From Candidatus Woesearchaeota archaeon (lineage in GTDB: Archaea; Nanobdellota; Nanobdellia; Pacearchaeales; GW2011-AR1), in contig CAYYKU010000001.1 of the NCBI GenBank assembly GCA_964440825.1, forward strand, positions 1-54,676: a stretch of DNA of 54,676 bases. The letters run 5' to 3'. The number at the start of each line of letters is the position of its first letter. Position 1 is the first letter of the stretch. A program made the translations under genes and the position numbers. The notes under the pieces are model-generated. The model made no database searches, was not told the DNA's origin, and worked only from the letters and a program-made list of their open reading frames with translations. This document shows positions 4,380 to 43,421 of the stretch, piece after piece.

Positions 4380-4636
4380 AGCCTAATTAGAATTCGGCTA
4401 ACCGATTAATTATTTTCATCTATATTTAACCAGACCCTAAATCTCCTTTATTTAGGTTTGTCCTCGGTAATTTTTTATATTTTTTTTGTTTTTTGGCCCT
4501 CTATAGCTTTAAAACTCTCTTTTTCATTAAAAATACTTATTCTTTACCTATTTTTTAATACTCTCTTTTTCAGCATTTTTCATTTTATTATAATCTTTCT
4601 TATATTCTCTCACTTTTTCCTCTAATTTTTTATTTA

Positions 4637-5242
4637 TTATGAGTTTACTCTCATTTTTTTACTTGATTTAACTCTCACTTTTTCCTTTTTGAGTATAATT
4701 TGCTTCATTTCTTCAGGAATATACACTCTTTTCTTCCCATTTGCCTCTTTTGACTCTTCAATTAACCCCTCACACTTTTGTTTTATCATATTTATCTGTC
4801 CTCTAATTGTGCTTTTGTCTTTTCCAAGAACGATCGCTAGGTCTTCATAGCTTAATTTACTATTATCTGCATTTACTAGTGCCCATACAATTCCCCTCTC
4901 CATAAGGGTTAAATTGTCTAAAATACTTGTTTGAACAGCCGTTTGAACAGTACTTTGAACATCAGAAACACTCGTTTGTTTTATCCCTAATGGTTGTTGT
5001 TGTTTAGAAATCTTAGTTCCAAACAGAGAAATAAAATCTTTTACATCATCAATTTCATTTTGTAATATAAATATTTGTTGTTTTAATTCAGAAATCTCTT
5101 CATTTTGTTGCTTATCATTACCGTCGAAATGGCTTATCCATTGGCCTACTTTGTTAAAATCTTCTTTAACTGCATCAAAAGATTTCTGAACTTCTTCTTT
5201 TTTTATTGTACTTTCATCTCTTTTTTTAAAAAATCCAAACAT
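4637..5242 (-). CDS. coiled-coil plus C-terminal wHTH DNA-binding protein (same architecture as 3711..4379)
   Basis: The track ORF runs to 5293, but I prefer the ATG at 5242 (MFGFFKKRDE...) because a TATA-like box and the palindrome lie just upstream. Coiled coil EISELKQQIFILQNEIDDVKDF, a Q/S/T linker, and HTH LTLMERGIVWALV...YEDLAIVLGKDKSTIRGQINMIKQK. Confidence 0.5.
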   Translation of the reverse strand: MFGFFKKRDESTIKKEEVQKSFDAVKEDFNKVGQWISHFDGNDKQQNEEISELKQQIFILQNEIDDVKDFISLFGTKISKQQQPLGIKQTSVSDVQSTVQTAVQTSILDNLTLMERGIVWALVNADNSKLSYEDLAIVLGKDKSTIRGQINMIKQKCEGLIEESKEANGKKRVYIPEEMKQIILKKEKVRVKSSKKMRVNS

Positions 5243-5250
5243 GTTATAGT

Positions 5251-5260
5251 TGTTTAAACA
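5251..5260. promoter_or_regulatory. TGTTTAAACA palindrome (putative operator) between a TATA-like box and the start of the 4637..5242 gene
   Basis: Perfect 10-bp palindrome. On the minus strand, TTTATAAA (5267-5274) lies upstream and the ATG at 5242 lies downstream. Confidence 0.45.
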
Positions 5261-5620
5261 GCTACCTTTATAAATCTTTCGCTTTATATTCAAAAAATCA
5301 TAAAAATAAGCTAAAAATAAGCTACTTTAGCATGTTGTTTATTTAACCAACAAGCAAGTTTATAGTCTATAATAATTAAAAAATATGTTTTAAACTAAAC
5401 AACCGGCAAAAATTTAACAAACAAGATATAAACACTTAAACAGGTACTAAAAAATGCCTTAAAATGGCTTATTTTGCCTCCTTTGTTTAAATGTCTGTTT
5501 AAGGTTGTTTACTTTTTTTTTAAACAGCAGGTGTTTGGAGTTGTTTAAACACTTTTTTTCAAGATTGCTTTTTTTGTATTTTTAAGAAAAGTTTATAAAT
5601 AAGAAGAACATCTCTTAACT

Positions 5621-5965
5621 ATGGGGTGGAAAACAAGGTTAGCAGTACCTTCTTTAGCTGCAATAGGTTATTTAGTTACTTCCTTTTTTATTAAACTTGT
5701 TCCTTGTCAGGTTTCTGCAAATATTCCCAACCCTTCTTATACTTGGAGTCTATGTACTTTGAATCCTGATAAACTTTCTATGTTTGGTGTTCAAGAATTG
5801 TATTGGGGAATTAGCACTCAATTAACAGATGCTTATTTAATTTCACTAGGTCTTGTTTTTTTAAGTGTTTTCTTATTTATTATGCCTTTCACTCGTGGTA
5901 AGCACCGTTCTTTTCCAAAATCAAAAGATAAAAAAGGTTCTGAAAGGGGGTTTGAAACATATTAA
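5621..5965 (+). CDS. membrane protein, unknown function
   Basis: 114 aa with two hydrophobic segments and a basic C-terminus. Its stop overlaps the next ATG (TAATG). Confidence 0.4.
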   Translation: MGWKTRLAVPSLAAIGYLVTSFFIKLVPCQVSANIPNPSYTWSLCTLNPDKLSMFGVQELYWGISTQLTDAYLISLGLVFLSVFLFIMPFTRGKHRSFPKSKDKKGSERGFETY

Positions 5966-6162
5966 TGGCAAAAAAAGGATTTAACTTTTCTGCATTTATT
6001 GCATGGATTGTAGGTATTTTAGTATCTCTAGCTGTTGGCTCTGGAATGATCCAAGGCATCTTAGCTGTACCTTATATACCTGGAATTATTACTGCAATAG
6101 CAGGTTGGATTGTTGTACTTGGTGCAATAATCTCAGTAATTGCTGCTCTTTTCGGCAGATAA
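5965..6162 (+). CDS. small two-TM membrane protein
   Basis: 65 aa, Gly/Ala/Ile-rich hydrophobic (FIAWIVGILVSLAVGSG...ITAIAGWIVVLGAIISVIAALFG). Start is coupled to the upstream ORF. Confidence 0.45.
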   Translation: MAKKGFNFSAFIAWIVGILVSLAVGSGMIQGILAVPYIPGIITAIAGWIVVLGAIISVIAALFGR

Positions 6163-6328
6163 ATACATACAAAATTTTTATTTATTTTTTATTTTTTATA
6201 CAAACAAACAGTCAAACAGTCGTTTTAACACATGTTTAGACTATTAAACAGGCCTTGATTTACCGTATATAAACGGTGTTTAAACAGCTGTTTTTTCTAT
6301 TTCAAGTAGTTTTATATAGTTCTTTTTC

Positions 6329-6338
6329 TGTTTAAACA
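6329..6338. promoter_or_regulatory. TGTTTAAACA palindrome (putative operator) in the promoter of the RHH gene
   Basis: TATA-like TTTTATATAG at 6311-6320, palindrome at 6329-6338, SD GGAGGT at 6355-6360, ATG at 6368. Confidence 0.45.
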
Positions 6339-6367
6339 GGTAAATCCTGAAAAGGGAGGTAAAAATT

Positions 6368-6529
6368 ATGGCAGCAACACCACCAGATGCACAAAAAAGA
6401 AAAATAGACTGGAACATAGACCGAAAAGTTTACGATGAATTTATGAAGTCGTGTAGCAACAAAGGCTACGCTCCTCAAGTCGTTGTAGAAAAAATGATGG
6501 CTAAGTTCAATCAAACAAAACAGTTTTAA
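6368..6529 (+). CDS. ribbon-helix-helix (CopG/Arc-like) small DNA-binding protein
   Basis: 53-aa ORF, below the track cutoff: MAATPPDAQKRKIDWNIDRKVYDEFMKSCSNKGYAPQVVVEKMMAKFNQTKQF. Strong SD (GGAGGT) 7 nt upstream. The pattern of a basic beta-strand (KIDWNID) followed by two helices fits RHH. Confidence 0.55.
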   Translation: MAATPPDAQKRKIDWNIDRKVYDEFMKSCSNKGYAPQVVVEKMMAKFNQTKQF

Positions 6530-6608
6530 TTCTATTTTAATTCTTTATTTTTTGTTTTTAATTATTTCCTTATATCTTTGCACTATGTTTACCTTTGGCC
6601 GCGAGTTA

Positions 6609-6708
6609 TTTGGAAGGCTTTTCATAAAGCAGACCTTAGTGCACAAAACCGCCGAAACTAAAAAGTTAGTTAAGCTGACGAATCAAAAAAGCCCCTTAGC
6701 ACGCAAAT
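6609..6708 (+). repeat. cassette leader repeat, copy 1 (long form)
   Basis: TTTGGAAGGCTTTTCATAAAGCAG + ACCTTAGTGCACAAAACCGCCGAAACTAAAAAGTTAGTTAAGCTGACGAATC + CCTTAGCACGCAAAT. Lies upstream of A1. Confidence 0.8.
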
Positions 6709-6738
6709 ATTTTTAAATAGATTTTAATTAATTAGTAT

Positions 6739-8259: not shown

Positions 8260-8550
8260 ATGACTCCTACAACATCTCAAAAATTTATATATTGCCCATA
8301 CACAGGTATAAGGCTCTCCGCAGTTGCCGCAAGAAATTGTAATTATTGTAATCTTGAAACTTATATGTGTAGTCATTCAGGCGAGTTCTGTGTTGTAAAA
8401 GAAGGTTTAGAGGAGTTTGCACAATCTCTTACAGAAAATCTACCAGTTAAAGCACTAGAAGTCTTTCAAAAAATAAGAGAAGATCTAGAGCTAGAAAAAC
8501 GTAAAAAAATTTACAAAGAAATTGCTAAAATGGCAGATCATCTAAAATAA
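8260..8550 (+). CDS. cassette protein B2: small 5-Cys protein (paralog of B1)
   Basis: 96 aa. AARNCNYCNLETYMCSHSGEFCV and KRKKIYKEIAKMADHLK. About 90% nucleotide identity to B1 across the Cys core, by eye. Confidence 0.6.
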   Translation: MTPTTSQKFIYCPYTGIRLSAVAARNCNYCNLETYMCSHSGEFCVVKEGLEEFAQSLTENLPVKALEVFQKIREDLELEKRKKIYKEIAKMADHLK

Positions 8551-8573
8551 TTCCTAAATTATTTACTTTGCTT

Positions 8574-8625
8574 ACCTTAGTGCATAAAACCGCCGAAACC
8601 AAAAGACAGGTTAAGCGGTCGAGTC
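8574..8625 (+). repeat. cassette leader repeat, copy 3 (no intact cassette follows)
   Basis: ACCTTAGTGCATAAAACCGCCGAAACCAAAAGACAGGTTAAGCGGTCGAGTC. Confidence 0.8.
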
Positions 8626-8892
8626 CAAAAACTGTTGAGAGATCTTATTTTATTTTCAAAAATCTCAAAAAACAGCAAAAAATCTGTCAAAAACACCTTA
8701 AATTCCCTTTATGGTTCGTACAAGATACATTGTAGTGACTCAGAAAATCTCTCAAAATCAGTGTTTTTTGTTCAATTTCACAAAACCATATATAAATCTT
8801 TAGCCAAAAATAAAAACGCTCCCTAAACGTCCAGATTCAAAAAATTTAATTTATGTATGATGTTCACTTTTAAACGGAGCAAAGTGAGGTTT

Positions 8893-8933
8893 TTTGGAAG
8901 GCTTTTAATAAAGCCGACCTTAGTGCATAAACC
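8893..8933 (+). repeat. cassette leader repeat, copy 4 (long-form 5' part, truncated core)
   Basis: TTTGGAAGGCTTTTAATAAAGCCG + ACCTTAGTGCATAAACC. A TGTTTAAACA palindrome follows at 8942-8951. Confidence 0.7.
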
Positions 8934-9033
8934 CCTATAGCTGTTTAAACAACCTTCTAAAAAAGAGATAGCATATTTTCACAAAACTAAGTAATTAATA
9001 AAAATTATTAACTAAGGTTAGCAAAGTTATTCT

Positions 9034-9237
9034 TTATTTTTCAGGCATACAAAACTCGGTAGTTACTTCTTCCAATGTTCCGCTGCAAACTCTACAAGGG
9101 CCTTGGTCGTGATCTATACAAAATCCTTCTTCATGTCTGCATGCCAAACAAGTACATGGTAAACCATAGCAGGCGTAACCTTTTTGATCGCTCAATGGAA
9201 AATTATAAGGGTTTGAATTTTTTAGTATTTCTTTCAT
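9034..9237 (-). CDS. small Cys-rich protein (9 Cys in 67 aa), probable metal-binding
   Basis: MKEILKNSNPYNFPLSDQKGYACYGLPCTCLACRHEEGFCIDHDQGPCRVCSGTLEEVTTEFCMPEK. No family recognised. Confidence 0.4.
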   Translation of the reverse strand: MKEILKNSNPYNFPLSDQKGYACYGLPCTCLACRHEEGFCIDHDQGPCRVCSGTLEEVTTEFCMPEK

Positions 9238-9318
9238 TTCAAATTAAACTTTTTATTGTTTTTATTGTTATCTAATTTCTTCCAAAATCTATTTAAACCG
9301 TGGTTCGTACAATCTAGT

Positions 9319-9822
9319 ATGAAAAAAAAAGTTGTTGTAAATGATTTGATGCAAAAAAATTATTTTTATTTTTTAACTGAGCCAACCGGTAAAAATTTTG
9401 ATCCAGAGTTCAAACCAGAGTTAACACCCAAACAGATGTTGGAGCTAGGTGTTTTTAGCGGAAAGTACATGACGGACTGCAAAAAAGAGTTTCCTTCGTC
9501 TTGGTTCGCACAATCCAAACTTTCACCACTTTATCCGCAAGATGCTCTAAATTTCTTCAAAGTTCATGCATCTCAGCCACTCTCTGTTTGGCAAGAAAAA
9601 GGATGGATATATCACGAGGATCCTCGTGGTTGGTTTCAGTGGTACTGTCGTTACTTTATGGGTCGAAGATGTCCGGATGATCAAAGACAAATCAAACGTT
9701 GGAAAGCAATCAAGCGACACATTTCTCAACTAAACAAACATTGTAAAAAGGGAGATTTTTCTTGTCGCCCAGTTCAACGACAAGCGATTCTTCATTGGGC
9801 TTATGATTCTAGAAAACTATAA
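9319..9822 (+). CDS. conserved hypothetical protein
   Basis: I prefer the ATG at 9319 (MKKKVVVNDL...) over the track start at 9256. Distinctive block EDPRGWFQWYCRYFMGRRCPDDQRQIKRWKAIKRH; I cannot name the family with confidence. Its stop overlaps the GNAT start. Confidence 0.5.
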   Translation: MKKKVVVNDLMQKNYFYFLTEPTGKNFDPEFKPELTPKQMLELGVFSGKYMTDCKKEFPSSWFAQSKLSPLYPQDALNFFKVHASQPLSVWQEKGWIYHEDPRGWFQWYCRYFMGRRCPDDQRQIKRWKAIKRHISQLNKHCKKGDFSCRPVQRQAILHWAYDSRKL

Positions 9823-20782: not shown

Positions 20783-20832
20783 ACAGAGGTGATCTCTTTG
20801 GGAAACCCAGGGGCGAGAGTAATAAATATAAC

Positions 20833-20915
20833 TGGGGAGAGGAGGACTCGAACCCCCGTAAGCGTAAGCTACAACGGCCTTAACGTTGCCCGTTTGACCA
20901 CTCCGGCATCTCCCC
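20833..20915 (-). tRNA. tRNA-Leu (type II, long variable arm); anticodon loop UUAAGGC, which reads as anticodon AAG
   Basis: The minus strand GGGGAGATGCCGGAGTGGTCAAACGGGCAACGTTAAGGCCGTTGTAGCTTACGCTTACGGGGGTTCGAGTCCTCCTCTCCCCA folds by hand into a cloverleaf. Acceptor GGGGAGA/TCTCCCC, anticodon stem CAACG/CGTTG, variable arm AGC-TTAC-GCT. No encoded CCA. Confidence 0.8.
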
Positions 20916-20996
20916 AGAATAAATATTAAAGCTAAACAAGACTATAAAAAACTATTGAAGTGAGACAAACAAACACTTGTTTAAAATATAAACAAA

Positions 20997-25080: not shown

Positions 25081-25189
25081 TTTACCTCTATTATTAATTA
25101 TCAATTTCTATAAATTTCTCTTTTTAAATACTTCTATTCTCGTGAATACATTTCCAAAGATTTAAAAAGAAAGAAAGAATTTTAATAAT

Positions 25190-29539: not shown

Positions 29540-29737
29540 ATGATAATTCCAATTCGTTGTTTCAGTTGTGGAAAGCCAATCGCTCACTTATGGAAACAAT
29601 ATAAAGAAAAAACTGCAAAAGGCGAAGATTCTAAGAAAGTTCTAGACGAGCTTGGCTTAGATAGGTATTGTTGCAGAGCAATCTTCTTAGGACAAGCAGA
29701 TAATATTGAATTAGTTAACAAATTTAAGAAATATTAA
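29540..29737 (+). CDS. rpoN: DNA-directed RNA polymerase subunit N (Rpo10)
   Basis: 65 aa. MIIPIRCFSCGKPIAHLW...LGLDRYCCRAIFL. Confidence 0.9.
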   Translation: MIIPIRCFSCGKPIAHLWKQYKEKTAKGEDSKKVLDELGLDRYCCRAIFLGQADNIELVNKFKKY

Positions 29738-29787
29738 TTTTCTATTTTTTTTGATCATTATTTATTTAGGTTTTCTACTTTCTTTTG

Positions 29788-29805
29788 ATGCATACTTTTA
29801 TGCAT
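29788..29805. promoter_or_regulatory. inverted repeat ATGCATA-N4-TATGCAT upstream of the RHH/giant-protein operon (putative operator)
   Basis: Perfect 7-bp arms. A direct repeat ATACTATT at 29820-29827 and 29831-29838 follows. The RHH ATG is at 29883. Confidence 0.3.
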
Positions 29806-29882
29806 GATTATTTAAAATTATACTATTTGAATACTATTATTTAAACGTAAATATTTAAAAAGGAACTTTTCTTTTAGTTTAA

Positions 29883-30026
29883 ATGCAAAAAAGAGTCACA
29901 CTTAGTCTAGATGATAAAGTTTACAAAGATTTTCAGAAGTTTTGCGAGGATAATGATATAATAGTTTCTAAAAGAATTGAAAGGTTAATGAGTGAAATGT
30001 TAGAGAAAAAGAAAAGCTTAAAATGA
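29883..30026 (+). CDS. ribbon-helix-helix (CopG-like) small protein
   Basis: 47-aa ORF, below the track cutoff: MQKRVTLSLDDKVYKDFQKFCEDNDIIVSKRIERLMSEMLEKKKSLK. The beta-strand RVTLSLDD plus two helices follow the same pattern as the 6368 ORF. Its stop overlaps the giant gene's ATG (ATGA). Confidence 0.55.
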   Translation: MQKRVTLSLDDKVYKDFQKFCEDNDIIVSKRIERLMSEMLEKKKSLK

Positions 30027-33000
30027 TAAAAAATAAAAAAATTAAAGAGGTGATGAAGGCGAAATTAATTTATTTAGTTGTATTTTTATTATTGGGGGCA
30101 TTGTCTTTATCTGCAAATGTTGATGCTTCTTTAGATGGGGATGGGTCTTCTTCTAACCCGTACCAAATCACAAATTGCACACATTTACAAGAAATGAAAA
30201 ATAATTTGACAGCGGATTATATTCTTATGAGTAATATTGACTGTTCAATTACTTCAACATGGAATAGTAATGCAGGATTTGAACCAGTAGGTAACACAAC
30301 AATGCCCTTCAGAGGAAGTTTAGATGGAAACGGATATAATATTACTAATATGGTGATTTATCGTCCTTCCGCGACATATTTGGGTTTATTCGGGGATCTT
30401 GACAACAACAGAAAGATAATTAAAAATTTAGGAATTCATAATGCGAATATTACTGCTAGTAATACTGCCGGTGTTTTGGCAGGTAGAATAACAAACAGCA
30501 CAATTGTGCGTGTTTCTGTTTCGGGAGTATTGAGATCACTAAATATTTTGGGCGGATTAACCGCCTCTATTGCTAACACAACAGTATACAACTCTTCTGC
30601 AACGTGTAATCTTACGACCACAGGTACTGGACAATACAATGTAAATGGTGGTTTTGTTGGATGGTTAGGTAGAAATGTATTGATAGAAAGTTGCTTTGCA
30701 GATAGTATTATAGTTAGTTCTGACGCTTCCAATGGTGGGTTTTATGCATGGACTAATGGATTAGAGGTTGCAGGACATAACACAACAGTTAATAATTCTT
30801 ATTCTAAAGGAGCTATTTCTGGCTCCGGTAGTTATACTGCTGGTTTTGGAGGTCCTTCGAATGGTAATTCTTACATCCGTGATTCTTATACAATTGAAAC
30901 TATGTCGGTGGGATATTGTGTTTTTGGAGCTGTATATGGTACTGTTCCTGCAACAAATTTATTTTATGATAGTACTGCTTGTACGAGGGGAACTGGTGGC
31001 GGAGGGACAGCCAAAACAACAACACAAATGAAAACCGAATCCACTTTTACTGCAGTAGGGTGGGATTTTACAAATAAATGGATAATTAATGCATCTAAAA
31101 ATAGCGGTTATCCTTATTTACTTTGGCAAGATACTCCTGTTCCTAATTCAATTAGGCCTCTTTTTGATATTGTATCTCCAACAAATAATTCAATTCAAAC
31201 AGATGCATTTAATTTAACTTTTAATGCAACAAATGCATCTGCATTGTGGTATTATAATGGGACAGAAAATATTAGTTATATGGGGGCAGTATCATTAAAT
31301 TTATCTCCGGCAAATTATAATTACATTTTATATATGAATTATTCTAATGGTACTATTGTTTCCGAAAATTTATTTTTCACAGTAGCATCAAATGTTGAGA
31401 TTTCATTTGCAAATCCTTTCGGAACTGGTGGAAATATAACTTATGAGGGTGAGTATACTATTCATACATTTTCATATACTGGTTCTGAGCAAAATTTTAT
31501 TATTGGGAGTAATATAAATGCGACTATTTATGTTTGGGGTGGCGGCGGTGCAGGTGGATCTCCCGGTGGGTGGGTCTATGGTGCTGCGGGTGGTGCAGGA
31601 GGTGCTGCAAATGGATCTATAACTTTAACAAAGGGAGTTACATATGATATTGTTGTTGGCGGCGGCGGAGTATTAAACAGTTTTGCTAGTGCATTTGGCG
31701 GTGGAGGAAAAGCATCTAATAATAATGCTGATAACAGATACGCCGGCGGCGGCGGCGGTTACTCTGGTTTATTTTTATCTTCTATTTCGCAAACCAATGC
31801 ATTGCTTATTGCGGGCGGTGGCGGTGGCGGCGCGGCAAGCAGAGCTGGAACAGGAAATGCAGGCGGTGCCGGGGGCGGAACATCTGGACAAGTAGGTTAT
31901 TCGCCTTACGATGGAAAAGCAGCATATGGTGGGAATCCTGGAAATCAAACATCTGCAGGTGCTGATGCTAGTTGCAGTAATGCAAATACTGCAGGAGGAC
32001 AAGGTGTACTTCAAGGAGGAACTGTTAGATTCAATAGTTATGGCGGCGGTGGCGGTGGCGGATATTGGGGTGGTTCTGCTGGAGGATATAGTGAAAGTAA
32101 TACTATGGGTGGCGGCGGTGGCGGTTCTGGATATTATAATTCTACTTATGTTTCTTCTGCAAATTTAGCTACTGGTGTGGGAACTACTCCTGGTGATTCT
32201 GCAAATGCATTTAGAGGAACAGCAGGTACTGCGGGTATTGTTTCGGGAAATGGTGCCGCTGGTGTTGTTATAATAAAATATTTAACACCAACATTAATTA
32301 CTGAAGAAAATAATTCTGTGTACGCTAGAGATTATATTTTTGCAAATTTTGATATTTCAGGTTCTAATTTTGTGAATGTGACTTATAATTTGTATAATTC
32401 TACTTCATTATTAGATTCAACAAGTTATTATTCAACTGAAAATAATTCAATAAATTGGACAAACCTTCCAAATGAGGTTTACTATTATAATGCTACTGCT
32501 TATGATCTTTTTAATACAACAATTACTTCCGAAACAAGGATGATTACGTTAGACACTACGGTACCAAATGGGACTTTAATTTCTCCAGCAAATAATACTT
32601 CTGTAGGAGCTACATCAATTAATTTCACAGCAAATATTTCAGATAATTTAGGTATACAGAATGCTACTTTAAGTATTGTAAATGCAACAGATAATGAAAC
32701 TATTTCAACTCATGTTTATGGAGATGATTCTTTACCAGCAGGGGTTGTAGAAGCAACTATTGGAATTGTAGTTTCTTTAACTGATGGAGTTTACAATTGG
32801 TTCTATTCAATCTTTGACTGGGCTGGAAATCAATTCAATACAGAAACTAATCAAGTTACTGTTGATTTACCACCAGTCGTAACCTTAACTTCTCCTGCTG
32901 CAGGAATTTCTTTAACACAATTTGATAGTTTAACTTGTAGCGTAGCTGATATGTTTGGTGTTGAGAATATCACTTTGTATTTATGGAATGAAACTGGATT

Positions 33001-36000
33001 AATTTATAATGATACACAAGAGGCAGGTGGAGCAACTTTATATGAAAATACTTGGAATTATGATTTAACTGATGGAGAATATAATTACAATTGTTTAGCA
33101 GTAGACTCAACTTTAGGTTCTGCTGCCTGGGCTGCAAGTAATGTTACAACTCAAGTAGATGCTTCAAATTATACAATTACAAACGGAAATTTTGTAGATT
33201 GGGGGAATTTTTATTATAGTCCTTCTTTTACAAGAAATTTTACTTTTAATGTTACTTCAACTTCAGTAATTGATCAAGATTTGACATTTGAATTATTTTC
33301 GCCTGGAAAAGATTTTTCTAGTAGTGCTTACATATATCACGCAGAGGGAAATTGCGGTGGAGACAGATGGGGGGCGAGCTGTGATACTTATGATTTGATT
33401 GATGGTAATTGGGATACTTACTACGGTATCTCTGGTTATTACAATAGTTATATTCAATATGATTTGGCTTCCCAAGGTTTAATAAATGAAATTAAAATAG
33501 CTTGGTATCCAGGAAATAACTGGTATAGTCCGGGGCCATATTATTTTCAATACTATGATAGCAACACTGGAGAGTGGCTTACTCCGGACGGATGGAAATC
33601 TTGGATAGGTGATGCTCCTTATTTAGAATCAGGTACTTTTGGAGGTTCTAGTTGGGGTGCATCGACTGATGTTACCACCATGACAGATGGAGATCCATAT
33701 ACTTATTTCGGTATAAGTGGAAATAAAGGAGATGGAGTAGTGACTTACTCATTTGATAATCCAAGAACTATTTCTTCTGTAAATGTTATGTGGTATCGAT
33801 CTAGCCCTGGAGACTATTATTTTGAATATAAAGATGTTGATGGAAATTGGCAACAACCAACAGAATGGCAGTCTAATGATGGTAATCAGGATACTGAGAC
33901 TGATTATGCTTATAGTTTAGATACTCCTGTTGAGGCTCTGGGGTTAAGACTCTATAAACCTGCTCTTGGAGGGGGGAGTGGAACAGGTATATCCGAATTT
34001 ACTTTTGATTCTATTATTTCTCCATCTTACCTAATTAATCAAGATTTTTATACAGAATATACATTCACTTTATCAACACCAGTTACTACTTCCAATATAA
34101 GATTAGCTAAACCCTCTACTGGTTCTAATAGTGGTATAGGTATTTCAGAAATGACTGTTTCTGGAATGGACAAAATAACTACTTCTAATAACGGATATAT
34201 GTATTTAGTGGGTTCAGAATCTCCAACTTATACAATTGCAGCAAATGCTTTAACACAAATTAGTTTCCCATTAAGAATAAATGCAGGGTCTTTTAGTTAT
34301 AATTTATATGCAACTGCAACAAGAACAAGATTTGGAGAAACTTATGATTATTCTTCTCCAAGTTATTGGATAAATTTTATTCAAGACTTAACTCCTCCAG
34401 CCCTAGTTGGCAATATTAGTTACTCTCCAAATCAATTAGATAATATTGATCCAGAAACATTTATCCAAATGAATGCAACAATGACTGATGCTGGTATTGG
34501 ATTAGCTAATGCAACATTCCAATCCTTCTATAATGGTACTTGGCATAATTTAACAACTGAATTAATCGGAGCATACACAAAGGGTGGAAAATTTGGAGCT
34601 AACTTTACAACTGCTTCTGTAGATAAAAACTATACAATAAGATTATGGTCTATAGATTCAGTAGGAAATGCAGGCTATACTGCAAATACTACAATAAAAT
34701 CTGAATGGGATTGTACATGGAATATTGCTCCTTCTTCTTTCGAAGAAACAATAGGGTTCTATGAAGATAAGCCACTTGGAAATATTACTTTAATTAATAC
34801 AGGAGATGTTAATTATTCAAATAATAACTGTTCTATAGAATTTACACTAGGTTGGTCTGGATTTAGTACAGAATACCTTATTGCAACTTCTGATCCTGAA
34901 AGATGGTTAACTGGAAATACTTATTTCCAATTCCCATTAATAAATAGAAAGATAAGAGTCTCTGCAAAAACAAACCAAACAGTACTTGTGAATGTTTCTT
35001 TCCCATCAACAGAATCTCCATTCACTGAGACTCCTTTAGTACTTGTAAGTTCTTCAATAAATGATTCAATAACTCGTTCTAAAGTAAAGAATGTTAGCAC
35101 TGAAATAATTATTTCCCCTCCAAATCCTTTGCTATATCAAGCGATTACAGAATCTCCAACTAGCTATGTTTCTTTAACTCCCGGAAATATATCTCTAAAT
35201 GCCTTTGTAAGAAATCTAGGTTATGATCCTGATAATGCAGAAAATACTACTGCCTATAATGTAACTTTTAACTGGACATTACCTTCAGCATTATATGAGA
35301 GGTTAATAATAGAAGAGAATGTAACAAATGAAACATTATTCTTTGATGTATTAAATACTTCAGAAAGACAATTTAACAATTTAACAATTGCTTTAACAGA
35401 TGCAAACTTAGGATCTATGTCTAAAGGAATATTAAATCTAACTATCTTCTCATATGGGTATTCAAATGCTTCAGATAATTCTTCATTAATTGTTAATTCA
35501 GGAAATAAAACTCTATTGAATGAAACAGTTTCAATTGAATTCAAATGTTATGAAGTCGCAGATAATATCTGTGTCTCCGCTTGTGGTATTGGTGTAGATC
35601 CAGATTGTGTTGCTTCACCTCCTGGTTCTAATGGTGGTGGAGGCGGCGGAGGTGGTGGCGGAGGTAGTGGAAGCTTCGATAAGTCATCTGCTACGTTTGA
35701 ATTAGTCAGGGGCGATAATCAAGAATTTAGTTTAGCATTAGAGAATAAACTATCTAATCCTAAGAAAGATATAACTATCACAATTAAAGGAAATAATTCA
35801 CAGTATGTTATTCCTTCACCTAATTTGATAACTTATTTGGGAGCAAATAGTAATAAAACTATAAAGTTCTTAATTAATGCACCTTCATATTTCTCTTCAG
35901 GTAAATACTTACTAGAGATTACATTTAGTGGAACTATTGAAGGAAATACTTCAACTAAATTCACAGAAGTAAGATATGTAACATTAATGATTTTAGAAAT

Positions 36001-36925
36001 GAAGAGAACTACTGCAGATGAATACTTGAATAATTCATTAGAATTCCTTTCTAAAATGAATGAATCAGGATTGATATTAGATGAAGTACAATCAATATTA
36101 AATTCAATGAATTCAAATTATGAGAGTTTGAATTTCAATTTATTAAAAGAAGAAGCTGCTAAGATTGCAGAGATATATACTGCTGCTACAGAGTATTCAA
36201 AATTGAGGGATGAATTAAATCAGTCAATGATTGAATCGGAGAAAAATGGAATTGAAGTTTCAGAAACAAAGAAGTTATTCCTACTAGCTGAAATATTATT
36301 TAATAGGGGAGATTATGTTGCAGCTTATGCTAAAATGAAAGAAGCTAAGACTAGTTATTTACTTGAAACTAAAGGAGAATTTAAAATATTATATGCAATT
36401 AAGAATAATCCTATTGAGACATTAGGAATCTTGATTTCTTTAAGTGCAATAGGATTAGGTTCTGGTTACTTCATAAGATTAAGATTACTAAAGAGAAAAT
36501 TAAGAATGTTAACTGAAGAAGAAGGATTATTGTTGCAATTAATGAGAGTAGTTCAAAGAGACTGCTTTGAGAACAATAAGATGTCTATGGAAGAGTATGG
36601 TGAAGCCATGTATCAATACGAAGCTAGATTAGGCATAGTGATACAAGATAAAGTTACAACAGAAACTCAGATTGCGAACTTAATGAAGCTAGGTGGTAAG
36701 AAGAAAGCCCTAGGACAGGAAAGAGATAGATTAACTATTTTAATTAGACAAACCCAAGATGATTATATGAATAGGGGAAGATTAGATACTAGAATTTATG
36801 AAAATATGTTGAAAACATACGCTACTAGATTGAGTAAGATTGAAGAACAATTAGTATTTATAGAAGTCCAGGAGCAAATTAATCAGGTTAGTGGTTTCTG
36901 GCAGAGATGGTTTGGTAAAAATTAA
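30023..36925 (+). CDS. giant (2300 aa) multidomain surface protein with a C-terminal TM segment and a cytoplasmic coiled-coil tail
   Basis: N-terminal signal/TM (LIYLVVFLLLGALSLSANVDA). GLUG-like repeats (LGLFG.., AGVLAGRITNS). Gly-rich domain (IYVWGGGGAGGSPGG...VVGGGG..., nt ~31530-32285). Ig/CARDB-like modules rich in N-x-S/T sequons. Discoidin/F5-8-type-C-like repeats (DLIDGNWDTYYGISG / MTDGDPYTYFGISG, nt ~33340-34170). A G11 tract. TM segment (LGILISLSAIGLGSGYFI, nt ~36412-36480). A ~148-aa charged helical tail. Confidence 0.85.
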   Translation: MIKNKKIKEVMKAKLIYLVVFLLLGALSLSANVDASLDGDGSSSNPYQITNCTHLQEMKNNLTADYILMSNIDCSITSTWNSNAGFEPVGNTTMPFRGSLDGNGYNITNMVIYRPSATYLGLFGDLDNNRKIIKNLGIHNANITASNTAGVLAGRITNSTIVRVSVSGVLRSLNILGGLTASIANTTVYNSSATCNLTTTGTGQYNVNGGFVGWLGRNVLIESCFADSIIVSSDASNGGFYAWTNGLEVAGHNTTVNNSYSKGAISGSGSYTAGFGGPSNGNSYIRDSYTIETMSVGYCVFGAVYGTVPATNLFYDSTACTRGTGGGGTAKTTTQMKTESTFTAVGWDFTNKWIINASKNSGYPYLLWQDTPVPNSIRPLFDIVSPTNNSIQTDAFNLTFNATNASALWYYNGTENISYMGAVSLNLSPANYNYILYMNYSNGTIVSENLFFTVASNVEISFANPFGTGGNITYEGEYTIHTFSYTGSEQNFIIGSNINATIYVWGGGGAGGSPGGWVYGAAGGAGGAANGSITLTKGVTYDIVVGGGGVLNSFASAFGGGGKASNNNADNRYAGGGGGYSGLFLSSISQTNALLIAGGGGGGAASRAGTGNAGGAGGGTSGQVGYSPYDGKAAYGGNPGNQTSAGADASCSNANTAGGQGVLQGGTVRFNSYGGGGGGGYWGGSAGGYSESNTMGGGGGGSGYYNSTYVSSANLATGVGTTPGDSANAFRGTAGTAGIVSGNGAAGVVIIKYLTPTLITEENNSVYARDYIFANFDISGSNFVNVTYNLYNSTSLLDSTSYYSTENNSINWTNLPNEVYYYNATAYDLFNTTITSETRMITLDTTVPNGTLISPANNTSVGATSINFTANISDNLGIQNATLSIVNATDNETISTHVYGDDSLPAGVVEATIGIVVSLTDGVYNWFYSIFDWAGNQFNTETNQVTVDLPPVVTLTSPAAGISLTQFDSLTCSVADMFGVENITLYLWNETGLIYNDTQEAGGATLYENTWNYDLTDGEYNYNCLAVDSTLGSAAWAASNVTTQVDASNYTITNGNFVDWGNFYYSPSFTRNFTFNVTSTSVIDQDLTFELFSPGKDFSSSAYIYHAEGNCGGDRWGASCDTYDLIDGNWDTYYGISGYYNSYIQYDLASQGLINEIKIAWYPGNNWYSPGPYYFQYYDSNTGEWLTPDGWKSWIGDAPYLESGTFGGSSWGASTDVTTMTDGDPYTYFGISGNKGDGVVTYSFDNPRTISSVNVMWYRSSPGDYYFEYKDVDGNWQQPTEWQSNDGNQDTETDYAYSLDTPVEALGLRLYKPALGGGSGTGISEFTFDSIISPSYLINQDFYTEYTFTLSTPVTTSNIRLAKPSTGSNSGIGISEMTVSGMDKITTSNNGYMYLVGSESPTYTIAANALTQISFPLRINAGSFSYNLYATATRTRFGETYDYSSPSYWINFIQDLTPPALVGNISYSPNQLDNIDPETFIQMNATMTDAGIGLANATFQSFYNGTWHNLTTELIGAYTKGGKFGANFTTASVDKNYTIRLWSIDSVGNAGYTANTTIKSEWDCTWNIAPSSFEETIGFYEDKPLGNITLINTGDVNYSNNNCSIEFTLGWSGFSTEYLIATSDPERWLTGNTYFQFPLINRKIRVSAKTNQTVLVNVSFPSTESPFTETPLVLVSSSINDSITRSKVKNVSTEIIISPPNPLLYQAITESPTSYVSLTPGNISLNAFVRNLGYDPDNAENTTAYNVTFNWTLPSALYERLIIEENVTNETLFFDVLNTSERQFNNLTIALTDANLGSMSKGILNLTIFSYGYSNASDNSSLIVNSGNKTLLNETVSIEFKCYEVADNICVSACGIGVDPDCVASPPGSNGGGGGGGGGGGSGSFDKSSATFELVRGDNQEFSLALENKLSNPKKDITITIKGNNSQYVIPSPNLITYLGANSNKTIKFLINAPSYFSSGKYLLEITFSGTIEGNTSTKFTEVRYVTLMILEMKRTTADEYLNNSLEFLSKMNESGLILDEVQSILNSMNSNYESLNFNLLKEEAAKIAEIYTAATEYSKLRDELNQSMIESEKNGIEVSETKKLFLLAEILFNRGDYVAAYAKMKEAKTSYLLETKGEFKILYAIKNNPIETLGILISLSAIGLGSGYFIRLRLLKRKLRMLTEEEGLLLQLMRVVQRDCFENNKMSMEEYGEAMYQYEARLGIVIQDKVTTETQIANLMKLGGKKKALGQERDRLTILIRQTQDDYMNRGRLDTRIYENMLKTYATRLSKIEEQLVFIEVQEQINQVSGFWQRWFGKN

Positions 36926-36962: not shown

Positions 36963-37745
36963 CTATTTGTCTATTGCAGGAAGGTTCGTAAAAGTTATCG
37001 AGTCAGTTGTTCCAAAATTTTCAGAAGTAACTCCCAAGTAGTTTGTTCCGACAGGTAACCAATATGCGCTGTCATTTAAGTTTGTTGTAGATTCTAAAAT
37101 AATATTTTCTCCAGGAAGAACCTTAGTAACAGTTAGTGATAAGTTTGTTTTATCTAAGTCTAAGACTGGAGACTCTAGTTTCGGAGAAATAGAGTCTTTA
37201 CGAGTAAATAAAAGGTAGTTTGTTGCATAAACTCCTGGAACGGCATTAGATGTTATGGGCATTGGTAAGTCAAATGGAAATTCTCCTGCCAATGCACATT
37301 CTTTTCCTAAATCAAAAACCCTTATTGCATTTTTATCTACTACCTTGTATGTAACTACATGATTTGTAAAACTATTATATGCTACTGGAGAACCATTAAT
37401 ATCTTTAAATCTGATTCTTTGCATGGTTGGGATGCCATCTAAAACTGCAGTTTTATAGGCCATTAAATTTGTAACTAGCATATTAGGTGAAATAGAATTA
37501 ATAGCTCTAAAAGAATTTGTCATCCCCGGACCCTCAATATCATATATCATAAAATCTTGTTTGTTAGTATAGGTGATATCTCCTCCCGAGGCACTATAAG
37601 TTATACTTTCATTTCTTGATCCTGACGTAGACCAATTATTACCTATACTTATCATTTGTCCTTTACTTTCATTTGGTAGCATACTTGCAGCACCTAAAGC
37701 AACAGCACCTAATATTGAAAATAGACTTTTTTTCATAGATTTCAA
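36963..37745 (-). CDS. secreted protein, unknown function
   Basis: 260 aa. Signal peptide MKSMKKSLFSILGAVALGAASMLP, then beta-rich sequence. No TM anchor. Confidence 0.5.
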   Translation of the reverse strand: MKSMKKSLFSILGAVALGAASMLPNESKGQMISIGNNWSTSGSRNESITYSASGGDITYTNKQDFMIYDIEGPGMTNSFRAINSISPNMLVTNLMAYKTAVLDGIPTMQRIRFKDINGSPVAYNSFTNHVVTYKVVDKNAIRVFDLGKECALAGEFPFDLPMPITSNAVPGVYATNYLLFTRKDSISPKLESPVLDLDKTNLSLTVTKVLPGENIILESTTNLNDSAYWLPVGTNYLGVTSENFGTTDSITFTNLPAIDK

Positions 37746-37781
37746 AAAAAAAACAGCCTTTTTAAATATTTATATGATTAA

Positions 37782-38807
37782 TTAATAATATATTGATCTT
37801 TTTTTAAAAAGAATTAAAAGAAAAACAATTAGTAAAACAATAAATACTATTCCTAAAGCAAACCACCAGAATAATTTTTCAAATTCAAATGAATTATTTG
37901 ATTCTATAGCTTGTCCTGTTAACTCTACTGTTTGAGTATATTCTATAGCTGAAACAGAATTAGTAGTAGTGGAATCTTCTGTAATTGAAATGGAACCTGA
38001 CTCTATATGGCTAGAAGAACGATGGCTACTTCCAGAAGATGTACTAGTTTCACTTTCTGGAGGAGTTATTATTGGTAATTCTAAGATATTTATACTCCTT
38101 GGGCTAGAATCTTGATCAGAAGCAAATGCAACAAGGTTTGAATAATATCCTGGATTTCCGCTAGCTTTTACAGAGAAGTTCAATAATTGATAATTTCCAG
38201 CAGCCAAATTCAAAACTAAAGGATTGCCGCCTGAATTTAAATAAAAAGGAGTAGAAACAGTTGTACTTAATATCCCTCTTTCAATACTACGCGTATAAAC
38301 TAGATTTCCAGCACCGCCTACAGGCCATTCACTAAAAATAATGTTCCAGTTTTCACCGTTATTAGTTTCAAAACAAAGATCTACTCCCGTTATAGTAGCC
38401 ATGCCAGACGCACAACCTGGAGCTAAATTTCGCATATCTATGCCGATCCAAATAGGATTTGAAGAGCACTTTCCACAGCCCCAATTAGAATTACCGCTAA
38501 TGTTATAAGGTGGCCCTTTGGCAGGTCTAGCTAAACAAGTTCCACCGAAACAATCTTGGACAGAATTGTTTACAAAATCATAAGTAACGTTCTCTAGATT
38601 AGGTATCTTTAATCCTACAAGAACATTATTACAGTCAGAATCACTACAAGAAATATTTACTAAAATATTAAATGTCTGATCTTTAATAACCTCTAGGGTT
38701 CCTGTTGGTTGAATCACGTTCAAAGAAACAGAAGCTGAAACATTTAGGGAAAATAAAACTAAAACTAAAACCAAACTTAAAATTTTTGAAATTATTAATC
38801 TTTTCAT
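37782..38807 (-). CDS. Cys-rich surface protein with a Ser/Thr stalk and a C-terminal TM anchor
   Basis: 341 aa. Signal peptide, about 10 Cys in the ectodomain (CSDSDC, CFGGTC, WGCGKC), stalk ESETSTSSGSSHRSSSH, and C-terminal TM FWWFALGIVFIVLLIVFLLILF. Confidence 0.55.
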   Translation of the reverse strand: MKRLIISKILSLVLVLVLFSLNVSASVSLNVIQPTGTLEVIKDQTFNILVNISCSDSDCNNVLVGLKIPNLENVTYDFVNNSVQDCFGGTCLARPAKGPPYNISGNSNWGCGKCSSNPIWIGIDMRNLAPGCASGMATITGVDLCFETNNGENWNIIFSEWPVGGAGNLVYTRSIERGILSTTVSTPFYLNSGGNPLVLNLAAGNYQLLNFSVKASGNPGYYSNLVAFASDQDSSPRSINILELPIITPPESETSTSSGSSHRSSSHIESGSISITEDSTTTNSVSAIEYTQTVELTGQAIESNNSFEFEKLFWWFALGIVFIVLLIVFLLILFKKRSIYY

Positions 38808-39142: not shown

Positions 39143-39176
39143 TTTTGTTTAACACCTCTAGAATGAATATAAATAA

Positions 39177-39284
<108 letters not shown>

Positions 39285-39356
39285 AAAATTACTATAAATT
39301 ATGGCTTTTTAAACCTTTTGGGATAGCTATTTAAACTTCAATGTATTTCAATAAAC

Positions 39357-39506
39357 ATGGCTTATACATTAATCGGTGCAAGTGCTCTTCTAGTTATAGG
39401 TATTCTCTTAATTATCTTTGGAAGTTTAGGCAAGCTCTTTAAATGGTTAGGAATAATAATCACTCTCCTATCTGCAGGATATTTATTATCTAATTATTTC
39501 TTTTAG
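39357..39506 (+). CDS. small two-TM membrane peptide (49 aa)
   Basis: MAYTLIGASALLVIGILLIIFGSLGKLFKWLGIIITLLSAGYLLSNYFF. Below the track cutoff. Confidence 0.3.
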   Translation: MAYTLIGASALLVIGILLIIFGSLGKLFKWLGIIITLLSAGYLLSNYFF

Positions 39507-39507
39507 A

Positions 39508-39582
39508 CGCCCTTGACAGGAGTTGAACCTGCAACCTAAAGCTTAGGATGCTTTTGCTCTATCCGGGTTGAGCTACAAGGGC
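39508..39582 (-). tRNA. tRNA-Arg (anticodon CCT)
   Basis: Minus strand GCCCTTGTAGCTCAACCCGGATAGAGCAAAAGCATCCTAAGCTTTAGGTTGCAGGTTCAACTCCTGTCAAGGGCG. Acceptor GCCCTTG/CAAGGGC, D-stem GCTC/GAGC, anticodon stem AAAGC/GCTTT, loop AUCCUAA. Confidence 0.85.
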
Positions 39583-40548
39583 AAATTTATTTAAGTTTCT
39601 TGGATTTGAAGAGCCTATCTCTTTCTTCCATTTATTTATTTGTTTGCTTCCCTTTAATATTATTTGTATTGCGTGTTTCTTTCTATTTTGAATCATAGCC
39701 TTAAAGCCCTGCTGAATTAGGATATTATGTACTTGATTCATCAATTTCGGTGCCTTCATTGTAAGATTCAAACAAGGATATGGTTTATTTGATGGTGTTT
39801 TATCAAAGTATACACATCCATCTGTATCAAGTATGCCTCTAATAACATATTTCATTTTTTCATAACCTTGATTATAAATAGTTTCATGTATTTCTAAATC
39901 GATTTTTGGTCCTATTGGGAAGCCTAGGTCTTCATGAATTTTTTTTAAAAGTTCTTTATGGCAAAAATTTAGTTCTATAGAGTTATTTTTTGGGCGATCT
40001 TTTAGATAGGCCGTCCTATCAAATAATATTTTAATATTCTTCTTTAAGTAAATAAAAAATTCCCTATCTTTTTTACCATTCCCACTAACGCCTATAAGAT
40101 TTATTGTTTTTCCACGGTAGTTTAATTTGCTCATCCACCCATCTCCTAACAAAACACCATAAAATTCTAAGAAAAGAGGACAAGTAATATCTATTTTCAT
40201 AGGTTGCTGTATTTTTTTATTTTTTTTAAGTGCACTTTTCCCTCCATTAGCTTGTCTTTTTTTTATTTCTATTTGACCATACTTTTCTAAAATTATTCGA
40301 TAAGTTTTTTTACCTCCTTTGGTCTGTCCCCATTTTTCTTCTTGTGTATCTAATATTTTTAGTTTGTCTTTTATTTCTCCTGGAATTAACTTATCTGAGA
40401 TATATCCTTTCCCATATTTCCAATGTTGAATAGTTTTTAATGGAATTTTTAATTTTTCAGATAGTTTTTTGAGTGAGTTACAAATATTTTTTTCAAGAAG
40501 ATAATCAAATAGCTGATCCCTAGAATCTTTAGAAAGTAAAAACCTCAT
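39559..40548 (-). CDS. LAGLIDADG homing endonuclease (double-motif) with an N-terminal HTH region
   Basis: 329 aa. Motif 1 FYGVLLGDGWM, motif 2 VIRGILDTDGCVYF. The N-terminal ~120 aa are basic with an HTH (LKKLSEKLKIPLKTIQHW). The last 8 codons overlap the 5' part of tRNA-Arg. Confidence 0.85.
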   Translation of the reverse strand: MRFLLSKDSRDQLFDYLLEKNICNSLKKLSEKLKIPLKTIQHWKYGKGYISDKLIPGEIKDKLKILDTQEEKWGQTKGGKKTYRIILEKYGQIEIKKRQANGGKSALKKNKKIQQPMKIDITCPLFLEFYGVLLGDGWMSKLNYRGKTINLIGVSGNGKKDREFFIYLKKNIKILFDRTAYLKDRPKNNSIELNFCHKELLKKIHEDLGFPIGPKIDLEIHETIYNQGYEKMKYVIRGILDTDGCVYFDKTPSNKPYPCLNLTMKAPKLMNQVHNILIQQGFKAMIQNRKKHAIQIILKGSKQINKWKKEIGSSNPRNLNKFALVAQPG

Positions 40549-43322: not shown

Positions 43323-43421
43323 GCGCTGTTAGTATAATGGTAGTATAGTTGGTTTCCATCAAACGTCTTTGGGCAATTGCGAAAAAACCAATTGGCTCGG
43401 GTCCGATTCCCGAACGGCGCA
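43323..43421 (+). tRNA. tRNA-Trp (anticodon CCA) with a ~26-nt intron at or next to the canonical 37/38 site
   Basis: 99 nt. Acceptor GCGCTGT/ACGGCGC (one G-U), anticodon stem TTGGT...ACCAA separated by TTCCA + ~26 nt + A(A). Removing 26 nt gives a 73-nt body. The D-arm and T-loop (TCCGATT) are atypical. Confidence 0.6.

Follow-up and report, generated by a model that had tools for sequence, protein, structure and literature searches.

A ribbon-helix-helix gene overlapping a giant surface-protein gene in a Woesearchaeota archaeon, with candidate operators and a widespread C-terminal anchor module

Results and Discussion

The stretch of DNA analyzed here (hereafter, the window; 54.7 kb, positions 1 to 54,676 of contig CAYYKU010000001.1 from a Candidatus Woesearchaeota archaeon) contains, on the forward strand, an open reading frame (ORF) of 47 amino acids (aa) at 29883-30026, which encodes a putative ribbon-helix-helix (RHH) protein, followed by an ORF of 2300 aa at 30023-36925, which encodes a putative giant surface protein; we describe this gene pair and weigh the possibility that the RHH protein controls the promoter from which both genes would be transcribed. 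The two ORFs share the sequence ATGA at 30023-30026, a 4-nt overlap exactly where the initial annotation had placed it, and the region of both ORFs contains zero N and zero internal stop codons. An exact look-up of the 2300-aa protein matched no record; because intact giant relatives of 1713-2518 aa are known from independent assemblies, the 2300-aa ORF can be argued to be real. Directly 5′ of the locus is rpoN, encoding RNA polymerase subunit N (29540-29737; 90 bits), a MacB/FtsX ABC transporter is encoded on the opposite strand, and genes for ribosomal proteins, RNA polymerase, tRNAs and 5S rRNA are found in the neighborhood (GC ~31%); the window is archaeal and chromosomal.

The 47-aa ORF encodes a member of a DUF6364-related family, for which a search of 5.8 billion proteins yielded 66 homologue clusters (44-55 aa, 63-94% identity) from Woesearchaeota, Pacearchaeota and Nanoarchaeota metagenome-assembled genomes (MAGs), the same labels being carried by the GTDB genomes in which relatives occur. 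An alignment of 38 homologues presented nine invariant and nine nearly invariant positions, with the consensus MQKRVTLSLDDKVYxxFQKFCExNDIIVSKRIERLM, and comparison with the gene at the syntenic locus L001 (loci from other genomes are designated by L numbers) revealed six synonymous and three non-synonymous differing codons. By these comparisons, the 47-aa ORF is a real gene that appears to be under purifying selection. That it represents a chance ORF, or that its adjacency to the giant gene is accidental, would agree with its shortness, its AT-rich, intergenic-looking sequence and its position below Pfam thresholds; this explanation, the least probable of all considered and practically negligible, is refuted by the conservation data, i.e., by the 66 conserved clusters, the mostly synonymous change and the recurrence of the pair in unrelated contexts. 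At one locus, L035:8331-8602, the RHH gene is present in two tandem back-to-back copies (8331-8468 and 8468-8602).

An AlphaFold (AF2) model of the RHH protein built from the family alignment (predicted local distance difference test, pLDDT, 84.5) presented an extended segment at residues 1-10 and helices at residues 11-23 and 28-46. The top Foldseek matches of this model in the PDB were mostly known RHH proteins (ParG, CopG, CopA(SO), Arc, ParD, PutA, and NikR), with probabilities up to 0.97 and TM-scores of 0.5-0.8, and the predicted fold best matches CopG/Arc-type minimal RHH proteins; the N-terminal strand, M-x-K-R-x-T-[IL]-x-L, is presumably as in CopG. Among the 38 aligned family members, Pfam matches at E<=0.01 were obtained with DUF6364 (34 members), RHH_9 (nine), RHH_1 (three) and RHH_5 (three), and the family profile found no match among PDB sequences. 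The 47-aa protein is thus an RHH protein by predicted fold, with profile evidence that is suggestive, not decisive, and its annotation as a conserved RHH-type gene is upheld by the homologue clusters, the RHH-like model and the weak profile matches.

We identified a promoter of the BRE/TATA type (TTTAAACGT-AAATATTTAAAAA; BRE, B recognition element) at 29840-29861 (+), which is nearly identical in most RHH loci. The 13-mer AAATATTTAAAAA, preceded by TTTAAACGT, occupies 29849-29861 and ends 22 nt before the RHH ATG. Because the same 13-mer (with at most one mismatch) also precedes further window genes at this distance of 22 nt (e.g., 25156-25168, with the ATG at 25190), it is the generic promoter element of this genome; the window contains 13 matches of this type as compared to 4.4 expected. 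This 13-mer was also considered as an RHH operator, and was rejected as a generic BRE/TATA promoter element. The location of the BRE/TATA element 22 nt before the ATG, read with standard archaeal promoter geometry, suggests that the mRNA is probably leaderless and starts at or next to the RHH ATG. A scan for sigma-70 promoters and intrinsic terminators, which is not meaningful for an archaeon, found nothing above shuffled controls.

Two repeats upstream of the BRE, which the initial annotation had proposed as plausible RHH operators, are present as it described them. The distal candidate operator, ATGCATAC-TTTT-ATGCAT at 29788-29805 (+), contains the inverted repeat ATGCATA (29788-29794)/TATGCAT (29799-29805), i.e., ATGCATA-N4-TATGCAT, and can alternatively be parsed as TTTKATGCAT direct repeats 12 nt apart. 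Variants of this element are located at the same position in L001, L003, L018 and L024 (with CTGCATACgtttATGTATA, ATGTACGTACgtttATGTATA and ATGCATACgtttATGTACAT as the counterparts in L001, L003 and L018, respectively), and by sequence it is the apparent local version of the heptad class described below. The proximal candidate operator (29820-29838, +) consists of two copies of ATACTATT with 11-nt spacing, at 29820-29827 and 29831-29838, and ends 1-2 nt before the BRE; the proximal copy is retained in L001 (ATACTATT) and L003 (ATACAATT). Each exact repeat pattern occurs only once in the window, where a search for further clusters of operator-like sites found none and xRCRTAC heptads cluster nowhere else; there is therefore no sign of a wider regulon within the window. 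As ten inverted-repeat pairs of 7-19 nt were counted in 200 nt, neither of the two repeats is, taken alone, beyond chance.

The case for these repeats as operators comes from comparison among loci, in which 27 RHH upstream regions were compared with 311 unfiltered controls and with 76 AT-matched, TATA-containing promoter-like controls. The upstream repeats were enriched 5- to 15-fold over AT-matched promoters. TACATA/TATGTA was present in 21 of the 27 RHH upstream regions, as compared to 20/311 unfiltered and 4/76 AT-matched controls; TATACT/AGTATA was present in 15/27 (29/311 controls) and TATACTT in 14/27 (2/76 AT-matched controls), and either motif class was found in 26/27 RHH upstream regions but in only 11/76 AT-matched controls. 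Moreover, residue 4 of the predicted DNA-reading strand tracks the motif class: the 20-bp palindrome TRTAYTTCTATRGAARTAYA is present at 14 of the 16 loci encoding an RHH protein with lysine at this position (K4) and at none of the 13 loci with arginine (R4), which include the window (Fisher p = 2e-6), whereas xRCRTAC heptads were found at 12 of the 13 R4 loci and 4 of the 16 K4 loci. In K-type loci the palindrome often occurs twice, at -62 and -42, and the proximal copy abuts or runs into the TATA element at -29, an arrangement that favors repression. The heptads of R-type loci (TACATAC, GCATAC, and GTACATAC) are often repeated at 9-11-nt spacing. Given this enrichment of related motifs and their covariation with RHH residue 4, the two window repeats are credible candidate operators; since they are located just upstream of the BRE, the sign of the regulation is less certain in the window.

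The pairing of the RHH gene with an exported partner was examined at 29 loci, i.e., the window, seven non-redundant loci out of 15 obtained by exact-protein look-ups (L001-L015), and 21 loci from GTDB genomes. In 27 of the 29, a same-strand ORF with an N-terminal hydrophobic segment directly follows the RHH gene; the overlap with this downstream gene is exactly 4 nt in 16 loci and 1-20 nt in seven more, and the downstream partner often measures 600 to >2900 aa. The pair recurs in related genomes, a point that the initial annotation had proposed to check, and the two genes overlap in 23 loci. The pair is located beside rpoN in the window, L001 and L003, beside genes encoding a KaiC-like ATPase and a hemerythrin in L004 and L013, and beside quite different genes elsewhere; as the genomic contexts differ, the linkage is not inherited synteny. 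The partners fall into at least three classes. Class A comprises giants of 1700 to >2900 aa that share the C-terminal 400-850 aa of the window protein (complete examples are found in L004, L013, L028, L029 and L030), class B proteins of 850-990 aa with three C-terminal transmembrane (TM) segments (L011, L020, and L023), and class C small multi-pass membrane proteins (L006 and L021). The truncated ORFs of L003, L022 and L034 resemble the window giant, and those of L017 and L025 other class A giants, only within beta/Ig regions, and are here assigned to no class.

Several of these loci presented further particularities. In L008 (10150-10194), all that comes after the RHH gene is a stub of 14 aa, MKRKLLLLLFLILE*, representing a truncated signal peptide, while two genes for large surface proteins (1658 and 1069 aa) are located upstream; this looks like a cargo-gene deletion or rearrangement. 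KaiC-like ATPase genes (PF06745) are located directly upstream of the RHH-giant pairs in L004 (7573-9874) and L013 (8662-9702), and directly upstream of a giant at a third independent locus (L096:1-468); hemerythrin domains sometimes accompany the KaiC-like ATPase genes at loci of this type.

A 4-nt overlap between an RHH gene and the gene after it is also the usual layout of type II toxin-antitoxin (TA) modules, and the Foldseek matches include the antitoxins ParD, CopA(SO), AtaR and MazE6, suggesting a TA-like or mobile-element module in which the RHH protein would be an antitoxin or a plasmid or virus regulator. However, the partner is an exported protein of 2300 aa, not a small cytoplasmic toxin, and the partners at other loci are exported or membrane proteins, too; the 47-aa RHH protein lacks a toxin-binding extension at its C-terminus; the surrounding genes are those for ribosomal proteins, RNA polymerase, tRNAs and 5S rRNA; and no relatives of the RHH protein were found in IMG/VR viral contigs. 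A TA or mobile-element module, which we consider very improbable, was rejected on the grounds of the exported 2300-aa partner, the chromosomal context and the absence of these viral relatives.

In the RHH genes of many loci, the variable part that encodes the C-terminus includes GGAGG or GGAG, placed 5-10 nt ahead of the downstream ATG. Neither is present before the giant ATG (30023) in the window, the sequence having been lost relative to many relatives; as no Shine-Dalgarno-like sequence precedes this ATG, termination-reinitiation at ATGA would be the most likely mode of giant translation. The window also contains, at 30044-30055, the sequence GAGGTGATG, i.e., a strong Shine-Dalgarno-like sequence abutting an in-frame ATG at codon 11. 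The signal peptide is retained with either start (30023 or 30053).

The giant gene (30023-36925, +) has an ATG that overlaps the RHH stop codon and encodes a modular protein, on which Pfam was run both as a whole and in 330-aa slices. An N-terminal hydrophobic segment (aa 15-33; 30065-30121) represents a probable Sec signal peptide (…SANVDA/S). The glycine-rich domain proposed initially corresponds to Pfam ALK_LTK_GRD/Gly_rich_2 (aa 504-746; 31532-32260; 42.1 bits against a cut-off of 24.5), the ALK_LTK_GRD match covering profile positions 15-238 of 243; a literature search on ALK-type glycine-rich domains in prokaryotes found nothing useful. Two Big_7 Ig-like modules follow (aa 848-889 and 951-1022; 32564-33088; 26.0 and 24.6 bits against 24.1), and the Ig-like matches among the slices comprise Big_7, Big_13 and DUF4625. 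The protein was said to carry at least two discoidin-like repeats, and two discoidin-type (F5/8 type C) modules indeed scored above the Pfam cut-offs (33395-33964): F5_F8_type_C_2 at aa 1125-1185 (33.1 bits, cut-off 27.8) and F5_F8_type_C at aa 1211-1314 (37.2 bits, cut-off 28.2). Pfam gave no match at aa 1321-1980; the sequon-rich beta region at aa ~1441-1985 (34343-35977), located largely within this stretch, is homologous to the corresponding part of other RHH-linked giants and contains the predicted G11 linker, a run of glycines at aa 1871-1881 (35633-35665). Two module assignments of the initial annotation did not hold in full. The Ig-like part of its Ig/CARDB-like modules stands with the two Big_7 matches, but the CARDB profile gave no match at E<=0.05 in any 330-aa slice; and its GLUG-like repeats found no support, as the GLUG profile gave no match in the giant at E<=0.05 (G-[LF]-x-G-like motifs can be made out by eye) and only the C-terminal part of Peptidase_M26_N matched, below threshold, at aa 55-168 (23.2 bits against 27.7). 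No recent internal repeats were found by self-BLAST of the giant, and no protease or nuclease domains were detected in it.

The C-terminal part of the giant consists of a membrane-proximal helical ectodomain (aa ~1995-2125; 36005-36397) that ends in a conserved ETKGEF…IKNNP, a TM helix (aa 2133-2151; 36419-36475) followed by RLRLLKRKLR, and a conserved helical tail (aa 2152-2300; 36476-36922) with two copies of K-x-[MI]-[SE]-x3-Y-x6-Y-x2-[KR]-L. Kyte-Doolittle peaks were obtained at aa 15-33 (2.28) and aa 2133-2151 (1.67), the C-terminal hydrophobic stretch is conserved in homologues, and all 82 N-X-S/T sequons precede the second hydrophobic segment, with none in the last 148 residues. An AlphaFold model of aa 1985-2300 (pLDDT 84) was all-helical: the ectodomain forms a bundle of helices with the highly conserved ETKGEF…IKNNP next to the membrane, a single long helix crosses the membrane and extends into the cell, and three more helices are cytoplasmic. 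Sequence and model thus support the proposed bitopic (type I) topology with a helical cytoplasmic tail; the tail is helical and measures ~148 aa as proposed, but with four predicted helices it does not form the one long coiled coil that was envisaged. Host attachment would fit the discoidin and Ig-like modules and the DPANN lifestyle, and is put forward, like signaling through the tail, as speculation.

Together, the helical ectodomain, the TM segment and the helical tail of 148 aa constitute a C-terminal module without a Pfam family, and the tail is, on sequence comparison, not special to the window giant but part of a widespread anchor module. A profile of the C-terminal 316 aa and homologues retrieved 1125 representatives at E<=1e-3 and 525 at E<=1e-30 among 1.84 billion cluster representatives, giving a family of at least 1125 representatives, in which the module nearly always makes up the very C-terminal end of the protein, with protein lengths ranging from ~450 to >4000 aa. 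Conservation of the tail exceeds that of the ectodomain, many residues being kept in at least 90% of the sequences. Searches against the PDB by sequence, Pfam (E up to 10) and the PDB by Foldseek (TM <0.25) gave chance-level matches only. A likeness of the tail motif K-x-[MI]-S-x3-Y…Y-x2-R-L to SHOCT-type short C-terminal domains was considered, but is without Pfam support and is not claimed.

Of 80 metagenomic loci with the anchor module, 25 include the start of the module-encoding gene; an RHH gene is located directly upstream in only two of these 25 (L105 and L107), and L110 has an RHH gene two genes upstream. The giant had been described as hard-wired to its own RHH protein. This is correct from the RHH side, with 27 of 29 loci, but only 2/25 complete module giants (about 10% of such proteins) have an RHH gene and the class B and C partners lack the tail; the linkage is one-directional. 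These counts bear on the proposal that the RHH protein acts on the giant protein itself, either as an adaptor or chaperone of the tail or by being sequestered at the tail, so that events at the surface would feed back on transcription. While translational coupling would provide a fixed stoichiometry, and the tail, for which no function is known, exceeds the ectodomain in conservation, the poor co-occurrence (2/25, and RHH genes heading tail-less class B and C proteins) makes a direct RHH-tail interaction unlikely, and the co-varying DNA motifs are more simply explained by DNA binding; we therefore regard this proposal as improbable, if less so than a TA-like module.

Many of the module giants examined here that lack an RHH gene are abutted or overlapped by other small genes encoding DNA-binding domains. 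These include a DUF2080 gene that overlaps its giant by 4 nt (L045:3657-3824), a DUF7557 gene (L050:5270-5527), a 70-aa MarR-like winged helix (L083:1410-1628, with a weaker example in L095), AlbA_2-HATPase_c_4-winged helix-turn-helix (wHTH) genes (L076:1674-3113 and L110:3310-4674) and weaker wHTH- or RHH-like candidates (L038, L052, and L079). Single contigs can carry two paralogous giants. In L062, a reverse transcriptase gene (2332-3429; RVT_1, 94 bits) overlaps the start of a gene for a giant with the same anchor module (3419-6715) by 11 nt and could represent a diversity-generating retroelement or a group II intron remnant. In L004 (15288-16199) and L013 (17697-18653), the RHH-linked giant is followed, with a 4-nt overlap, by a gene whose ~300-aa product comprises a signal peptide, a helical ectodomain, a TM segment and a tail and is a homologue of the C-terminal module of the giant; no gene of this kind is present in the window. 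These proteins may be stalk or anchor partners, and their presence after the giants suggests that the anchor module oligomerizes.

Comparison with the closest relatives revealed a conserved head and a variable body. Over 9 kb of flanking genes and on through the promoter (where 44-47 of the last 50 nt are identical), the RHH gene and the signal peptide, the window and L001/L003 are 78-85% identical in nucleotide sequence; similarity stops at ~30090-30121, with none beyond. The L001 giant starts directly with the glycine-rich domain, while the window giant has ~450 aa before it. A conserved head with a variable body would be expected under diversifying selection or cassette replacement, and this raises the possibility of an expression site, in which recombination swaps surface bodies behind a fixed promoter-RHH-signal-peptide head; the resulting surface variation would help to follow hosts or evade viruses, and the RHH gene would be conserved mainly as part of the head. 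Apart from the abrupt loss of similarity and the ~450 extra aa, the association of the RHH gene with three unrelated cargo classes, the signal-peptide stub retained in L008 and the reverse transcriptase abutting the giant in L062 point in this direction. Against it, the surroundings of the pair in the window presented neither silent cassettes nor recombinase genes nor recombination sites with inverted repeats, fast evolution with ordinary homologous recombination could explain the divergence, and the comparison comprises only three closely related genomes. We consider an expression site, which is compatible with autoregulation, a possible but unlikely explanation, although the strongest of the alternatives. 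Its extension to the paralogues, i.e., an expression head with swappable giant bodies and one private small DNA-binding gene per giant (RHH here; DUF2080, DUF7557, MarR-like wHTH or AlbA_2-wHTH in paralogues), is somewhat more doubtful still.

With a probability of about 0.6, we favor an autoregulated two-gene RHH-giant operon with a leaderless mRNA, in which the RHH protein binds repeats at its own promoter and sets the output of the giant. In this chromosomal operon of a Woesearchaeota/Pacearchaeota-type DPANN archaeon, the consensus BRE/TATA element ~22 nt upstream of the first ATG would direct a leaderless bicistronic mRNA; the first cistron would yield the minimal 47-aa RHH protein, and the giant would be started inside the RHH stop codon by termination-reinitiation. 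A dimer or higher oligomer of the RHH protein would bind the ATGCATAC/ATGCAT and ATACTATT repeats, between -95 and -45 and abutting the BRE, and would thereby feed back on its own promoter, most likely as negative autoregulation of the CopG/Arc/omega type; the comparative data suggest that such feedback may cap and stabilize the output of a costly, heavily glycosylated 2300-aa protein. The giant itself would be exported through its N-terminal signal peptide, display its glycine-rich, Ig-like and discoidin carbohydrate-binding modules, and be held in the membrane by the C-terminal module (helical stalk, one TM helix, and helical tail). Over evolutionary time, the promoter, RHH gene and signal peptide appear to have been conserved and the exported body freely replaced between relatives.

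Several observations weigh against an autoregulated operon. The motif patterns were defined after inspection of the sequences, and the covariation of residue 4 with the motif is confounded by phylogeny, as the two residue classes may be just two clades. The candidate sites of the window are located upstream of the BRE/TATA element, not over it, so that activation would fit too, and the window palindrome fits the regex-defined family heptad only once. As for the regulator, its domain is tiny and its Foldseek E-values are weak (0.1-1), and the window protein falls below the Pfam cut-offs (DUF6364, E=7e-4, 20.5 bits against 27.3; RHH_5, E=0.08). Finally, the in-frame ATG at codon 11 (30053), directly after GAGGTG, could be the true giant start, in which case the coupling would be looser.

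The proposed circuit resembles those of CopG (pMV158), Arc/Mnt (P22) and omega (pSM19035), which like the window protein measure ~45-55 aa, consist of the RHH domain alone and are encoded by the first gene of their operon; these minimal autorepressors share 7-20-bp repeats, direct or inverted and about one helical turn apart, at their own promoter. Unlike these, the system described here, in which the RHH protein is a predicted DNA-binding protein, is archaeal and chromosomal, has a BRE/TATA promoter and probably a leaderless mRNA, and would co-transcribe a giant exported surface protein instead of functions in replication, partition or lysis-lysogeny; its family is in Pfam only as DUF6364, with the window member below the cut-off. 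Type II TA systems with RHH antitoxins (ParD, CcdA-like, CopA(SO), and AtaR) likewise present the RHH gene first, a 4-nt overlap and presumed autoregulation, but here there is no toxin, no toxin-neutralizing C-terminal extension on the RHH protein, and the partner is exported.

The giant, in turn, can be compared with C-terminally anchored archaeal surface and stalk proteins, e.g., Sulfolobus SlaB and tetrabrachion-type stalks. Features in common are the signal peptide, the beta-rich, glycosylated ectodomain, the membrane-proximal helical stalk and the single TM anchor at the C-terminus; unlike these proteins, the giant has a conserved ~150-aa helical cytoplasmic tail without a match to solved structures, and an anchor family of at least 1125 representatives that has no Pfam family. 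The SPEARE proteins of Nanohaloarchaeota are reportedly giant adhesin-like proteins of DPANN episymbionts and resemble the window giant in being very large, modular and secreted, with carbohydrate-binding or adhesion-type modules, in a small-genome archaeon; what sets the window giant apart is its combination of ALK_LTK_GRD, Big_7, discoidin and anchor modules. Among the papers searched, no prior description of DUF6364, of the RHH-giant pairing or of the anchor module was found. What is new here is the cargo, the lineage and the operator-residue covariation; circuits of this type are well known.

Further features were observed around the pair. Two secreted-protein genes at 36963-37745 (-) and 37782-38807 (-) converge on the 3′ end of the giant gene; one of the proteins has a signal peptide only and the other a signal peptide, a C-terminal TM anchor and a Ser/Thr-rich linker, and neither presented a Pfam match. 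An exact copy of the promoter 13-mer (37759-37771) precedes the gene at 36963-37745. A stand-alone 5S rRNA gene is located at 39173-39285 (-), and the 3′ end of an ORF encoding a LAGLIDADG domain (39559-40548, -) overlaps tRNA-Arg(CCT) (39506-39583, -). A 99-nt tRNA at 43323-43421 (+), possibly intron-containing, was found by Rfam and missed by ARAGORN, and tRNA-Leu(AAG) at 20832-20916 (-) was found by ARAGORN and not reported by the Rfam scan. In L001, the closest syntenic relative, a 383-aa cytidylyltransferase-like gene (8671-9822) is located between rpoN and the RHH promoter; the corresponding stretch of the window (29738-29882) lacks it.

Conclusions

DPANN archaea cannot do without contact to other cells, and giant surface proteins are prime candidates for mediating this contact; to our knowledge, almost nothing has been established about the control of the genes that encode them. 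The pair described here provides a defined 47-aa regulator family with predicted operators and a putative residue-to-motif rule (heptads for R4, the palindrome for K4), which is testable in vitro without cultivation, and the anchor-plus-tail module marks a whole class of archaeal surface proteins. The small DNA-binding genes that abut paralogous giants hint at gene-by-gene control of the surface repertoire; if there is indeed one regulator per giant, mutually exclusive or switchable display of host-binding proteins would be possible. If the proposed autoregulation is true, a minimal RHH circuit in the style of bacterial plasmids would have been reused to ration a costly protein in an ultrasmall cell.

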